Shown here: in pieces, positions 22,057 to 25,584 of the stretch | How the letters are laid out: every line of letters starts with the position of its first letter | Numbering within the stretch: position 1 is the first letter of the stretch | Source: Promethearchaeota archaeon | GTDB taxonomy: Archaea > Asgardarchaeota > Lokiarchaeia > Sigyniarchaeales > SOKP01 | Assembly: GCA_030606485.1 (NCBI GenBank) | Contig: JAUWGH010000006.1 | Location: 237,432 to 269,431, forward strand | Length of the DNA: 32,000 bases | Direction of reading: 5' to 3' | Position numbers and translations under genes: made by a program | The notes under the pieces: model-generated | Told to the model about the DNA's origin: nothing | Seen by the model: the letters and a program-made list of their open reading frames with translations, nothing else | Database searches by the model: none

Positions 22057-23079
22057 TTAAAAATTTCTTAAGTTTTTATATGTGAATCTATCTATCGTTT
22101 TAGATTTGCCCATAGCGATATCCCACATACTCTTAACATCCTCATCTGTCCAATATTTAAATCTTTTATTCCTGTAATGTTTAATCATCTCTAACCAATC
22201 TCCACTAACATCTTTTCTACAGCAAAACAATAGCGTATAGTAAAATCCTGATTTTGAAGCAATTTTTAATTTTTCGATCCTTCCGAATTTAATTTTTCTC
22301 AATTGTTCAACATATAAGTCGCTTAGTTCATTTCTCTTTGTATCAGGAGGGACTACTCTGCCAAAGAATCTTAGAACTTTTTTTGGATGTAGTTTTAAAT
22401 TTCTAGCAATTCCTGCATCTTGAAAGGTTATAATTATATCCCCAAAATCATGAATCTCTTTAATATTTCTTATTGTTTCATAATAAATGTCCATTCCTTG
22501 ATTATCAATAACCATTAAATAATTAAAAGATTCATCTTTCTTGCGAATCTCTTTTAAAATGTCTAAAACCCATTGATTTGAATCAATTTTATTTTTGTTA
22601 GTATTAATCTCTATATCAATATGATTTTGGATTGCGTTATTGAATGCTTTAAGTCTGTTATATAACACAGTTCTCTTATCTTGTTTAATATCATTGGAAT
22701 AAATTTTGGAAAAACCATTATGCTTTTTATGAGATATTAATGCAGCACTTATTGATGTTCCTGGAAAAATAAATTGATCTTTCCCAGCCTGTTTAGTTAC
22801 TTTATTCATGCCAAAGCTACTTAACAGATCAATAAAATATAATTTAATATACGATCTTTTTCCTAAAATAGTCAAATATTCATCAATATAATGTCTAAAT
22901 ACAATCTGTTTTGTAGCCATCCACCAGCCTGCTTTATCATTTTTTTTATAAAAATGATTAGGATTTGATAAAGAGAAATTAGGAATTTTTCTTAAAAAGT
23001 TAGAATCTTCTATTAAATTTTTAATATTTTCTAAGTGAAATTCAAATTTAGTTTGGTCACTCAATTCGGGAAACGACAT
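22057..23079 (-). CDS. tcmP: Three-Cys-motif partner protein (TcmP)-like, SAM-dependent methyltransferase fold
   Basis: W..TKQIVFRHYIDEYLTIL...LYFIDLLSSFG (cf. the family pattern YIDxFAGxG), LMVIDNQG, GFYYTLLFCCR; adjacent to a CxxxCxxC protein. Confidence 0.68.
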   Translation of the reverse strand: MSFPELSDQTKFEFHLENIKNLIEDSNFLRKIPNFSLSNPNHFYKKNDKAGWWMATKQIVFRHYIDEYLTILGKRSYIKLYFIDLLSSFGMNKVTKQAGKDQFIFPGTSISAALISHKKHNGFSKIYSNDIKQDKRTVLYNRLKAFNNAIQNHIDIEINTNKNKIDSNQWVLDILKEIRKKDESFNYLMVIDNQGMDIYYETIRNIKEIHDFGDIIITFQDAGIARNLKLHPKKVLRFFGRVVPPDTKRNELSDLYVEQLRKIKFGRIEKLKIASKSGFYYTLLFCCRKDVSGDWLEMIKHYRNKRFKYWTDEDVKSMWDIAMGKSKTIDRFTYKNLRNF

Positions 23080-23157
23080 AATATAAATTAGAATAATTCG
23101 TATATTTGAGGTTTTTATCTCTTATTATTTGCATAGATTAAATTAATATTTATTTTT

Positions 23158-23928
23158 TTAGATACTGGAAGATATGGAGTTAAATATACTATCCTTAATT
23201 CTTAGAAAAGAAGGATCATATTTTTTTGCGCGTTCTAATATTTTAAGTAAGTTTTCTTTGGAATTAATTTCTTTAATTGAGTCATAAATTATTTTATCTC
23301 TTAAATTTATATTTTTTCTGGAGATATAATTCATTTTACCGATCCAAATTGATTCTGTTACATATGGAATTAATGTATCAACTAAATCAAAAGGATTATT
23401 ATCTAAATAGGGTTCAATTGAGATACTAGTTTTATATCCTTGGCTATAAGAAAATTTTAAAGCCTTAAATCTTTCCTCGAATTTTGGCGCTCCAGGCTCC
23501 CAAAACTTAAGTATTTCATTGTTTAATGAGGTAATAGTAAATCTAAATTGAATCTGGTCTTTAAATTTTTGAAATTCTATACAAATTTTTTTAATACAAT
23601 CAAATTTTGGCTTAGTAGTTATTAAAATCTCGTTTTGAGATTCAAGTAATTTTCTTAAGACAGTTAAACAATTATCTAAACTTTCTCTCGTAATATCATG
23701 AGAAGTAGGAAACATAACTCGACCTTGTCGCTTATGATATCCCTTATCAATATATTTTTGGTTCGGTTCCATTATTTTCCATGTTTCTTCTGTCTTTCGA
23801 TTAAAACGAATAGCCATTTTTTTTGCATAGCAATATCGGCAATTGTTTGAGCATCCAACATAACAGTTCACGTTACTATCGGCCCATTCTTTAGTTCCTA
23901 AAGTTATTTTTCGAGTTTTAGTCTCCAT
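23158..23928 (-). CDS. Radical SAM protein (SPL-like / DUF5131-related)
   Basis: EWADSNVNCYVGCSNNCRYCYA (CxxxCxxC), ILITTKP, TITSLN...FWEPGAP...ERFKAL, ISIEPYL. Confidence 0.85.
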   Translation of the reverse strand: METKTRKITLGTKEWADSNVNCYVGCSNNCRYCYAKKMAIRFNRKTEETWKIMEPNQKYIDKGYHKRQGRVMFPTSHDITRESLDNCLTVLRKLLESQNEILITTKPKFDCIKKICIEFQKFKDQIQFRFTITSLNNEILKFWEPGAPKFEERFKALKFSYSQGYKTSISIEPYLDNNPFDLVDTLIPYVTESIWIGKMNYISRKNINLRDKIIYDSIKEINSKENLLKILERAKKYDPSFLRIKDSIFNSISSSI

Positions 23929-24126: not shown

Positions 24127-24846
24127 TTATAAGACAAATGTGGTTGATCCAGATTGATTTGGATTTTTCATTTTTAATTTATATCCAAGTTTTACCATTT
24201 CATTAATGAATAGTTCAGATCTAAAATAATTTTTTAATATTTGACCATGTCGATGTCCATGAATAATTTTAATTTCTCCGCCTTTTCTAATTCTGCATTC
24301 CTCAAGATGGTTAATTATTTCCTCTTTTGCATCCCATAATGTTAATCCATGCAAGTTACATGTAATATTTTTAGGGTTATAATAATCTTTTTCTATAATT
24401 TGTTCTATTTTGTCTGAATACTTTATTGCTTTATTTATTTTAGGCCAATCTGTCGGAGTTTTTTCTTTAAATTTATCCGTTATCCTTAGTGTTTTTCTTT
24501 TGTTTTTCATACTTTTCTTTTTTTGATCAAAAATATTCCACGATCTTGGATCTAATTTATTATATATTTTTTTTTCTTTAGTTTTTTTTAATTTTTCTTT
24601 AGTTTTTTTTAATTTTACATTATGTTTTGCAATCATATGTTGGTTAAGGTCTGTATCATTAACAAATTTTTTTTCACATTTAGGACATATTATTCCATGT
24701 TCAGCCCTCCTATGCTTTCGTAGTTTTTTTTTAGTAGCAAATTTTTCTTTGCAATTAGGACATATAAAATTTTGAATATTTTTATTTACTTTTTGTTGTT
24801 CTCTATTCTTTTCTTTATAACTGGAACGTTTTCTAGTAACTTTTAT
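24127..24846 (-). CDS. Tandem C2H2 zinc finger-Smr domain nuclease; start extended about 70 codons beyond the ORF track
   Basis: The frame is open from 24852 to 24127. The extension encodes CPNCKEKFATKKKLRKHRRAEH and CPKCEKKFVNDTDLNQHMIAKH. The C-terminus has the Smr pattern NLHGLTLWDAKEEI...KIIHGHRHG...GSTTFVL. There is no ATG/GTG/TTG upstream of 24636; candidate starts are ATA 24846 or GTT 24840 after GAGGTGA. Confidence 0.78.
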   Translation of the reverse strand: MKVTRKRSSYKEKNREQQKVNKNIQNFICPNCKEKFATKKKLRKHRRAEHGIICPKCEKKFVNDTDLNQHMIAKHNVKLKKTKEKLKKTKEKKIYNKLDPRSWNIFDQKKKSMKNKRKTLRITDKFKEKTPTDWPKINKAIKYSDKIEQIIEKDYYNPKNITCNLHGLTLWDAKEEIINHLEECRIRKGGEIKIIHGHRHGQILKNYFRSELFINEMVKLGYKLKMKNPNQSGSTTFVL

Positions 24847-24847
24847 A

Positions 24848-24854
24848 TCACCTC
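24848..24854 (-). promoter_or_regulatory. Shine-Dalgarno GAGGTGA for the C2H2-Smr gene
   Basis: The plus strand reads TCACCTC at 24848-24854, 8 nt after the stop of the CARF-HTH gene. Confidence 0.65.
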
Positions 24855-24862
24855 ATAGAAAA

Positions 24863-25531
24863 TTAAATAAACCATTTACCTTTATCAGTAATTTCAAAAA
24901 CTCTTTCTTTTCCCTTTTTTTCACTCGAAATTTCAATTAAGCCTATCTCCCTCAAATTTTTGAGGTATCTCGAAATCATTCCTTTACTTAAACCAGTTTC
25001 TTTTATTATCTTCTTTTGTGATAGATTTTTAGAATTTATTAAAAATAAGAGATTTTTTAATGGCTCCGATAACGGAACAGGCAAATATATTTCGATAGGT
25101 TTTATAGGTTTGTTTAAATCAGAGTCTTTTGGGATATAATAAAAAATATCAATTAAATTCTCAACAGTGGCTAAAAAATATGCTGAGAATCTCCATAATT
25201 CTAATCCAGAAGTTGCATTAAAGTAAATCCTGTATTCTAATCTTTTTAGTTCTCTTGTCTTTTCTTTTATAATGTGTATAAATTCTAAAACATCTCTAGT
25301 CTTAATTCTAATTATCTCAATTTTTTTAATCAATTTAGGTTCCAATTTTCTTTTATCAGATAAACTATAGCTTGGAATTAATTCTTGTTTGAGTTTATTT
25401 GCCAAATCAATATATTCCTTCTGAGGGGTTGTTAAAATTATTAAATAATTCCAATCATAATATAATAGACCTTCTTTAATCCAGTCTGGATTCATTCCTA
25501 AAGGAGCAATATGACAAATTATGTTTTGCAT
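24863..25531 (-). CDS. CARF-like (Csa3/DUF6293-type) domain fused to ArsR-type winged HTH; transcription regulator
   Basis: N-terminal Rossmann-like HIAPLG...IILTT...IYFNATSG...FYYIP; C-terminal LSQKKIIKETGLSKGMISRYLKNLREIGLI...FEITDKG. The start is ATG 25531 or TTG 25540. Confidence 0.72.
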   Translation of the reverse strand: MQNIICHIAPLGMNPDWIKEGLLYYDWNYLIILTTPQKEYIDLANKLKQELIPSYSLSDKRKLEPKLIKKIEIIRIKTRDVLEFIHIIKEKTRELKRLEYRIYFNATSGLELWRFSAYFLATVENLIDIFYYIPKDSDLNKPIKPIEIYLPVPLSEPLKNLLFLINSKNLSQKKIIKETGLSKGMISRYLKNLREIGLIEISSEKKGKERVFEITDKGKWFI

Positions 25532-25542
25532 TCTTCTCAAAA

Positions 25543-25584
25543 AAGTTTATTAATATAATAAACCTTTATAAAATTAATAAACTT
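25543..25584. promoter_or_regulatory. Overlapping divergent TATA boxes flanked by a perfect 12-bp inverted repeat (putative operator)
   Basis: AAGTTTATTAAT (25543-25554) and ATTAATAAACTT (25573-25584) enclose TATAAA-acc-TTTATA. On the plus strand this gives AAAACC-TTTATAAA, and on the minus strand AAAGG-TTTTATAT about 25 nt before ATG 25531. Confidence 0.65.

Follow-up and report, generated by a model that had tools for sequence, protein, structure and literature searches.

Two C2H2 zinc fingers ahead of an Smr domain in a Loki-type archaeon: a candidate effector gene behind a CARF-type regulator in a defence island

The stretch of DNA analysed here, called the window, comprises 32,000 nucleotides of a Promethearchaeota archaeon (GTDB lineage Archaea; Asgardarchaeota; Lokiarchaeia; Sigyniarchaeales; SOKP01), namely positions 237,432 to 269,431 of contig JAUWGH010000006.1 in assembly GCA_030606485.1. 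The genome, G000 in our set, is 100% complete by markers and is contained in 13 contigs. Our subject is a minus-strand gene of this window that joins two C2H2 zinc fingers to a C-terminal Smr domain, hereafter the ZnF-Smr gene, and that follows a gene for a Csa3-like regulator composed of a CARF domain and a winged helix-turn-helix (wHTH). The locus contains the following features, in window coordinates and in the order in which the minus strand is read:

25659 to 26642, plus strand: divergent gene with a C-terminal RNKIAH motif (Rx4H, HEPN-type) seen in the sequence; 38-43% identity to homologues by tblastn.
25543 to 25584, no strand assigned: 12-bp perfect inverted repeat AAGTTTATTAAT / ATTAATAAACTT, with arms at 25584-25573 and 25554-25543, around a TATA-like TTTATAAA.
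24863 to 25531, minus strand: Csa3-like CARF and wHTH regulator of 222 residues (PADLOC, Pfam), from ATG 25531 to the stop TAA 24865-24863.
24847 to 24854, minus strand: Shine-Dalgarno (SD)-like GAGGTGAT, 8 nucleotides after the regulator stop; GAGGTGA lies likewise after the stops of homologous genes.
24844 to 24846, minus strand: ATA, the sole near-cognate putative start before the fingers, abutting GAGGTGAT and 3 nucleotides after its GGT.
24130 to 24852, minus strand: entire ZnF-Smr reading frame of 241 codons, with two Pfam zf-C2H2 matches and one Smr match; mean pLDDT of the AF2 model 80.7.
24697 to 24762, minus strand: C2H2 finger 1 (C31, C34, H47, H52), from Pfam; predicted strand-strand-helix at pLDDT 92-94, ligands kept in the homologue P0001.
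24622 to 24687, minus strand: C2H2 finger 2 (C56, C59, H72, H77), from Pfam and AF2; it holds the ATG 24636-24634 chosen as start by the open reading frame (ORF) track.
24373 to 24621, minus strand: Lys-rich helical linker, three long helices in the AF2 model at lower confidence.
24130 to 24372, minus strand: Smr domain (residues 161-241), from Pfam, profile hits to 2zqe and 4och, VIA-align and the family alignment A1.

The ZnF-Smr frame is open from 24852 to 24130, between an in-frame TGA at 24855-24853 and the stop TAA at 24129-24127. An initial annotation, made from the letters alone, had pointed out that the ORF-track start lies inside the second finger with 72 open codons ahead of it, and both points hold: the first ATG, GTG or TTG of the frame is ATG 24636-24634, which encodes Met73 between His72 and His77. 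Among random codons at 24% GC about 9% would be stops, and an estimate from composition puts the chance of 72 open codons at about 0.001. By residue, the encoded protein comprises a basic tail (1-28), fingers 1 and 2, the Lys-rich linker (79-160) and the C-terminal domain (161-241). An independent contig from a marine-sediment metagenome (X2 record 13, 24839-24995) agrees with the window letter for letter over the region of the SD and the ATA. No indel near 24830-24860, where a read-level check had been proposed, is reported against metagenome contigs, although this listing can miss differences near the ends of contigs, and contigs of X1, the likely source run, cover almost none of the stretch; the gene start is therefore unlikely to be an assembly error. 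A look-up of RNA data sets for the stretch returned none, a result that is silent on expression.

Both fingers match the pattern C-x2-C-x3-F-x5-L-x2-H-x4-H first read from the sequence, and Pfam recognizes zf-C2H2 (PF00096) twice (38 bits, cut-off 25.2, E 1.7e-9). Each is predicted by AF2 to fold as strand, strand and helix with a pLDDT of 92-94, and Foldseek aligns the pair to CTCF, WT1 and Zif268-type or designed finger arrays, with the weak E-values expected for such a small domain. As in classical C2H2 proteins (PF00096; TFIIIA/Krueppel, zf-Di19), the ligands are spaced C-x2-C-x12-H-x4-H around a Phe/Leu core, and a beta-beta-alpha fold is predicted. Unlike classical arrays, the fingers repeat every 25 residues, as they also do in the homologues P0152 and P0012, and are separated from H52 to C56 by G-I-I, a Gly and two strand residues; the 28-residue period and the TGEKP-like 7-residue H-to-C linker of Krueppel-type tandem arrays were not found. 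The best two-finger profile for the pair is zf-Di19, at 25.6 bits slightly under its cut-off of 27.5. The description 'eukaryote-like' given to these fingers thus suits the zinc ligands and the hydrophobic core, and does not suit their arrangement, with its 25-residue period, H-x4-H spacing and one-residue linker in place of TGEKP. C2H2 fingers occur at only two loci of the genome, the ZnF-Smr gene being one; in Asgard archaea they were previously noted in TniQ proteins (bioRxiv 10.1101/2025.07.27.667033). One low-depth contig of a further metagenome (X3) skips 75 nucleotides (25 codons) between the fingers, at window positions 24679-24755, which would give a one-finger variant; this could reflect a real recombination between finger repeats, or an assembly collapse on a shared 11-mer.

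Beyond the fingers, the linker contains a 21-nucleotide in-frame tandem duplication (KKTKEKL) within 24571-24628, one copy of which is absent from the X2 and X3 contigs and from L002, the contig that carries the closest homologue. The C-terminal domain matches Pfam Smr (PF01713) over residues 166-236 with 26.4 bits, a small margin over the cut-off of 25.7 (28.6 bits in the whole-genome scan), and a family Smr profile matches the MutS2 Smr chains 2zqe and 4och at an E-value of about 1e-3. In the AF2 model, built from a 17-row family alignment, residues 161-241 are predicted with a pLDDT of 92-97. VIA-align superposes the predicted domain on known Smr structures as follows:

Thermus MutS2 Smr (2zqe): Z 10.6, rmsd 1.9 over 74 of 80 residues.
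Deinococcus MutS2 Smr (4och): Z 10.3, rmsd 2.0 over 74.
Human Smr (3fau): Z 8.4, rmsd 2.4 over 70.
YdaL (3qd7): Z 8.1, rmsd 2.2 over 75.
SmrB on the disome (7qgr): Z 7.3, rmsd 2.2 over 74.

A Lys-rich linker followed by an Smr domain with NLHG...IIHG, Asn standing for Asp, had been proposed for this gene, and the profile search of the frame and the structure prediction, both of which the initial annotation had called for, bear this out: all domains pass their Pfam cut-offs, and the predicted folds of fingers and Smr domain exceed a pLDDT of 90. NLHG corresponds to residues 166-169 (NLH, 166-168, at 24357-24349 on the minus strand) and IIHGHRHG to residues 196-203. At the Asp position of the catalytic DxH motif, which is covered by 17 of 18 aligned family sequences (P0002 is cut before it), 13 have Asp and four Asn, while the His is invariant. 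The candidate counterpart of the GxG/HGxG substrate loop, IIHGHRHG, is one residue longer than HGKG, and its H198, G199 and G203 are invariant or nearly so; the invariant family residues H168, G199, G203, S212 and F215 are all intact in the window copy. For SmrB, changing DLH to ALA in the DxH motif abolishes activity (bioRxiv 10.1101/2021.08.16.456513), and cleavage needs DxH and can dispense with the central GxG residue. The domain resembles the Smr endonuclease domains of MutS2, SmrB, YdaL/SmrA, Cue2 and N4BP2 in its PF01713 match, its alpha/beta fold (Z 7.3-10.6), the conserved His and HG loop, and its C-terminal position after a basic helical region. It differs from them in belonging to a distinct Loki-type subfamily, with the consensus DLHG...IIHGYxHGQVLKNYFRS...NPG, and in its fusion partner, which is a pair of C2H2 fingers and not a MutS, CUE, DUF1771, KOW or PPR module, with no ribosome link found.

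The closest homologue, the metagenomic protein P0001 of contig L002, has 54% identity to the window protein across fingers and linker (BLASTP) and 62% across residues 23-241 (tblastn); it keeps eight of eight zinc ligands, and its ATG lies ten residues ahead of finger 1. Comparison of the two genes by the Nei-Gojobori method gives dN/dS values of 0.28 (fingers), 0.42 (linker) and 0.14 (Smr domain). Purifying selection acts on the fingers, and, as judged from this comparison of sequences, they have belonged to a real coding sequence up to the present or the very recent past. The strain variants found in two further sediment metagenomes consist of substitutions and in-frame indels only. Fusions of this kind have recurred. 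Exhaustive HMMER searches and genome scans identified about ten other Loki-type proteins that join one to nine C2H2 fingers to the same Smr subfamily:

P0007/P0152: 422 residues from GTG 5860, nine fingers.
P0012: 245 residues, several fingers, of which three fit the strict pattern.
P0158: 259 residues, several fingers, of which three fit the strict pattern.
P0031: 274 residues, two fingers.
P0066: 201 residues, two fingers.
P0048: 190 residues, three fingers.
Protein of genome G193: 224 residues, fingers and a further N-terminal region.
Protein of genome G240: 130 residues, one finger.
Protein of genome G044 (L036:1836-3464, closed 4.4-Mb genome): 542 residues in reversed order, with an N-terminal Smr domain, a long coiled coil and three C2H2 fingers.

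The initial annotation had named fingerless homologues starting at the equivalent of Met73 as one of the findings that would speak against it; these homologues carry fingers and start elsewhere. Its expectation that gene callers would truncate the gene is correct here, and applies as well to the nine-finger gene at L019:5854-7128, whose called start, GTG 6001, falls inside a finger; starting at GTG 5860 adds 47 residues with more fingers. One of the three fingers of the G044 protein is of the JAZ/zf-met type. A well-supported, separate clade of the Smr subfamily (L037, L039, L040, L041, L045; P0106, P0122) has a C-terminal CxxC...CPKCG zinc ribbon and not C2H2 fingers. In a phylogeny of 42 Smr domains (83 columns), the window and L002 form a pair (support 100/100) outside a seven-member ZnF clade (86/91); because the backbone is unresolved, the tree leaves one versus several origins of the N-terminal finger fusions undecided. 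A search for homologous proteins with the Smr region alone found nothing (word-index limit). Archaeal Smr domains were previously reported mainly in Asgardarchaeota and Thermoplasmatota (bioRxiv 10.1101/2021.08.16.456513). A truncated Smr gene at L008 (G015:C375:2940-5941) is immediately followed by ORFs resembling NERD and UvrD.

The regulator gene lies 10 nucleotides upstream on the same strand, with the SD in the gap, and the two genes are probably co-transcribed. PADLOC assigns its product to CARF3 (1.4e-16, residues 7-224), CasR (4e-12) and Csa3 (2.6e-9), and Pfam to HFX_2341_N and a number of wHTH families; the NCBIfam model cas_HTH reaches 30.8 bits, under its cut-off of 60.2. The unrelated metagenome contig L019, of 44 kb, has a regulator with 61% identity and, directly after it, the gene for the nine-finger P0152, whose GTG 5860 overlaps the regulator stop by 13 nucleotides. 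The Smr proteins of the window and of L019 are not sisters in the domain tree, so the pairing of regulator and ZnF-Smr gene is either old or has arisen twice. A possible third association of CARF and Smr genes, in G034, was not counted, both genes being degenerate and convergent. Six further regulator homologues, 62-69% identical, have a strong SD shortly past their stop (GAGGTGA in four: L026, L029, L030 and L032). What follows varies: a 382-residue protein with a weak HEPN hit at two loci, and elsewhere a wHTH protein with a STAND NTPase, a 375-residue protein, a small ORF, or nothing.

The upstream region is likewise shared. Homologous CARF-wHTH genes on L026, L029, L031, L032 and L033 are preceded by the same inverted repeat, AAGTTTAT...ATAAACTT, and the repeat at 25543-25584 is, from its sequence and position, a candidate operator/promoter of the operon, common to all close homologues of the regulator. 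Homologues of the divergent gene accompany the CARF-wHTH gene at L029:1898-3001, L031:2420-3853 and L032:1459-2886, while the downstream gene varies. This arrangement resembles that of Csa3/CasR systems in the CARF3, CasR and Csa3 matches, in the palindromic candidate operator over the promoter and in the nuclease or RNase neighbours (HEPN, Smr); unlike Csm6, Csx1 and Can1, in which CARF and nuclease are fused, regulator and putative nuclease are separate proteins.

Translation of the fingers would have to begin without ATG, GTG or TTG. In the genome as a whole, 23 ORFs of at least 150 codons begin close to an SD and lack a canonical start over their first 25 codons or more. Twenty-one of them have ATA, ATT or ATC (ATH) 3-9 nucleotides after the GGT of the SD, with a sharp peak at 8-9 nucleotides (14 cases), as for ATG; canonical starts in the genome peak at 7-11 nucleotides and ATH starts at 8-9. 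This ATG-like spacing makes near-cognate initiation credible in the organism. An example in the window is ATT 14379 behind GGTGAT for the SNF2 helicase, which the ORF track starts at GTG 14154; a candidate elsewhere is a MinD/Mrp-like ATPase (G000:C5:113670-114614, minus strand), whose Walker A motif GKGGVGKT lies upstream of the first ATG, GTG or TTG. The two further candidates for an ATA at spacer 3 are uninformative: this ATPase, on C5, could also start at a CTG 9 nucleotides after GGT, and the other, an ORF on C10, does not look like a coding sequence. The TAA of the CARF-wHTH gene sits 16 nucleotides before the ATA, and re-initiation after it is an alternative route. On balance, we consider it somewhat better than an even bet that the finger codons are translated in the organism; that only a product from Met73 is made is improbable, and what remains falls to a ZnF-Smr gene that is not expressed or whose product is inactive.

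The window is a defence island. The neighbours comprise an SNF2/DUF1156-methylase system, a McrB-like AAA_5 protein, SIR2, a PDC-M41A/B radical-SAM pair and a NERD+UvrD helicase. The last (26782-28554; C3a187 at 4.9e-74) is about 1.9 kb from the ZnF-Smr gene, and the radical-SAM/TcmP-like pair (PADLOC PDC-M41B/A, 22057-23928) follows the ZnF-Smr gene both here and on L049, where the Smr domain is 95% identical. A TcmP-like gene is also found near the stand-alone Smr gene of the congener G002 (L004). PADLOC has no defence-model match for the ZnF-Smr protein itself.

The explanation that we favour, with a probability of roughly 45%, is that the ZnF-Smr protein is an inducible, nucleic-acid-tethered Smr defence effector occupying the variable slot of an autoregulated CARF-wHTH operon. 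The regulator would probably repress its own promoter through the AAGTTTAT...ATAAACTT inverted repeat, and a ligand bound by the CARF domain would lift this repression. The operon would then be transcribed, possibly along with the divergent HEPN gene, and a low level of ZnF-Smr protein would be made from the strong SD GAGGTGAT, either at ATA 24846-24844 or by termination and re-initiation after TAA 24865-24863. The fingers may tether the Smr endonuclease to nucleic acid, which the Smr domain would nick or cleave, and the protein would thus serve as a defence or abortive-infection effector. The antiviral role that had been raised as one of two options gains support from the CARF-wHTH operon, the defence island and the variable cargo slot.

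Several observations weigh against the effector reading. No ATG, GTG or TTG precedes the fingers in the window frame, and in every other ZnF-Smr gene observed a canonical ATG or GTG does so; an ATH at spacer 3 is found at four of the 23 sites, no more than expected by chance. The catalytic DxH motif is not matched in the protein, which has N166-L-H168 with the His kept, and Asp-to-Asn is a classical inactivating change. The L002 gene (L002:1196-1849) has an in-frame TAA (1634-1636) right after DLHGYELW, two codons past the conserved Trp. The pairing of regulator and ZnF-Smr gene is found at two intact loci only, and most copies of the Smr subfamily are stand-alone, 80-100 residues long and set in varied non-defence neighbourhoods. 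Finally, in contrast to CRISPR type I-A/III signalling, searches of the genome gave no Cas10 (no TIGR02578 or TIGR02577 match), no cas genes and, in a scan of 20-mer spacing, no CRISPR array, negatives that bear on where any CARF ligand would come from.

The first two of these points, together with the L002 stop, lead to the main rival explanation, which we regard as possible and doubtful: a recently inactivated gene, in which the start codon and the catalytic Asp have been lost and the product is either not made or not active. The spacing of the ATA from the SD is atypically short, NLH replaces DLH, and many copies of the subfamily in relatives contain internal stops. Among strain variants, nonsynonymous changes outnumber synonymous ones in the ZnF-Smr gene (about eight against four) and not in the CARF gene (eight against 18), small numbers in both cases. 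As the closest homologue has an in-frame TAA, the clade of the window and L002 may be decaying; yet the Smr codons beyond that TAA are 76% identical to the window copy and still conserved (dN/dS 0.14), so the TAA is recent, a polymorphism or a sequencing error. Inactivation must also be reconciled with 241 codons kept open in DNA of 24% GC, with the low dN/dS relative to L002 (0.14-0.42) and with the integrity of all zinc ligands and of every invariant family residue. Asn at the DxH position recurs among otherwise intact family members, ATH starts are apparently used in the genome, and the identical start region persists in another metagenome.

A more ambitious version of the effector reading, rather unlikely in our estimation, would see in these proteins a Loki-type family of natural zinc-finger nucleases (ZFNs), in which arrays of one to nine fingers guide a mini-Smr domain to specific DNA or RNA; some members would be induced by CARF-wHTH regulators independently of CRISPR-Cas, and in the window the ATA start would keep a toxic product at a low level. 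Engineered ZFNs combine a C2H2 array with FokI, and the R2 retrotransposon protein is a natural fusion of finger and nuclease. By analogy, the present family may share with them a modular C2H2 array, a linker and a non-specific nuclease domain, with finger number varying from one to nine across the family, and would differ in that the nuclease is Smr and not FokI or the restriction-like endonuclease (RLE) of R2.

Could the fingers instead be an N-terminal relic, the true product being a linker-Smr protein of 169 residues from ATG 24636? This ATG is the first canonical start of the frame, and a stand-alone Smr protein of about 80 residues is the commonest form of the family in relatives. Those stand-alone forms lack the 90-residue linker and begin just before DLHG, however, and Met73 falls within finger 2. 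Moreover, no SD precedes ATG 24636, as opposed to the perfect GAGGTGAT at the opening of the frame, and the fingers are under purifying selection relative to L002. We consider this truncated product improbable.

A housekeeping role in RNA surveillance, as a counterpart of SmrB, Cue2 or MutS2 that would cleave mRNA at collided ribosomes while its fingers bind rRNA or mRNA, was the other option raised at the outset, and the chances of it are slim. RNA cleavage at collided ribosomes is an established activity of Smr domains (bioRxiv 10.1101/2021.08.16.456513). The ZnF-Smr protein contains the sole Smr domain of genome G000, and its fold matches ribosome-bound MutS2 (8r55, Z 8.2) as well as SmrB (7qgr). 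NCBIfam SmrB and MutS2 also align weakly across the basic linker, far below their cut-offs (21.6 bits against 128 and 19.1 against 400). The distribution of the subfamily speaks against such a role: its profile matches 58 of 400 Asgard species genomes (34 of 134 in the archaeon's own family, 12 of 14 in the sister family) and two of the five genomes of the genus (G000 and G002), with none in the 100% complete congener G001, and several genomes hold two to four copies, pseudogenes among them. Being patchy, multi-copy and often pseudogenized, it is a poor fit to a core quality-control factor. In addition, the gene sits in a defence island, where it probably forms an operon with a CARF-wHTH regulator, and no ribosome- or ubiquitin-binding Pfam module (SmrB N-terminal hook, CUE, MutS2 KOW/clamp) was recognized in the protein. 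Nothing links it to collided ribosomes, and the analogy with ZNF598/Hel2 comes down to the shared C2H2 fingers.

Still less probable is a non-catalytic DNA-binding protein, in which an inactive Smr domain would serve as an interaction or nucleic-acid-binding module and the protein as a co-regulator with the CARF-wHTH factor. The Asn in DxH would agree with this, as would a fold common to members of the Alba family (Z 6.8-7.5 by VIA-align) and the IF3 C-terminal domain (Z 5.7-6.8), and E. coli SmrA, which lacks DxH, left the stalling reporter unaffected when examined alongside SmrB (bioRxiv 10.1101/2021.08.16.456513). Against it, neither the DxH His nor the HG loop varies across the family, and the closest homologue and most members keep DLH. 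Further candidates were rejected: an assembly error at the start, for practical purposes, because the start region recurs unchanged in another metagenome, and an alternative genetic code or a frameshift fusion to the CARF gene, because the ZnF frame has its own TGA at 24855-24853, downstream of the CARF stop, so that joining the two would take a frameshift and, in addition, read-through of a stop.

Smr domains and C2H2 fingers are each well known; the literature searched contains no description of a fusion of the two or of an Smr gene under a CARF-wHTH regulator, and no report of an Smr effector paired with CARF, so both the fusion and the CARF link are apparently undescribed. For annotation, the locus carries a warning: gene callers cut ZnF-Smr genes inside a finger, here and on L019, and because the genome appears to use ATA, ATT and ATC starts, callers limited to ATG, GTG and TTG truncate genes, and proteome annotations miss N-terminal domains. 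If the ZnF-Smr protein is active, Smr would join the effector domains of CARF-linked defence, and the family would offer a compact model of nucleic-acid recognition by short-linker C2H2 arrays. Such proteins would then be the natural equivalent of engineered zinc-finger nucleases, occurring in the archaea most closely related to eukaryotes.

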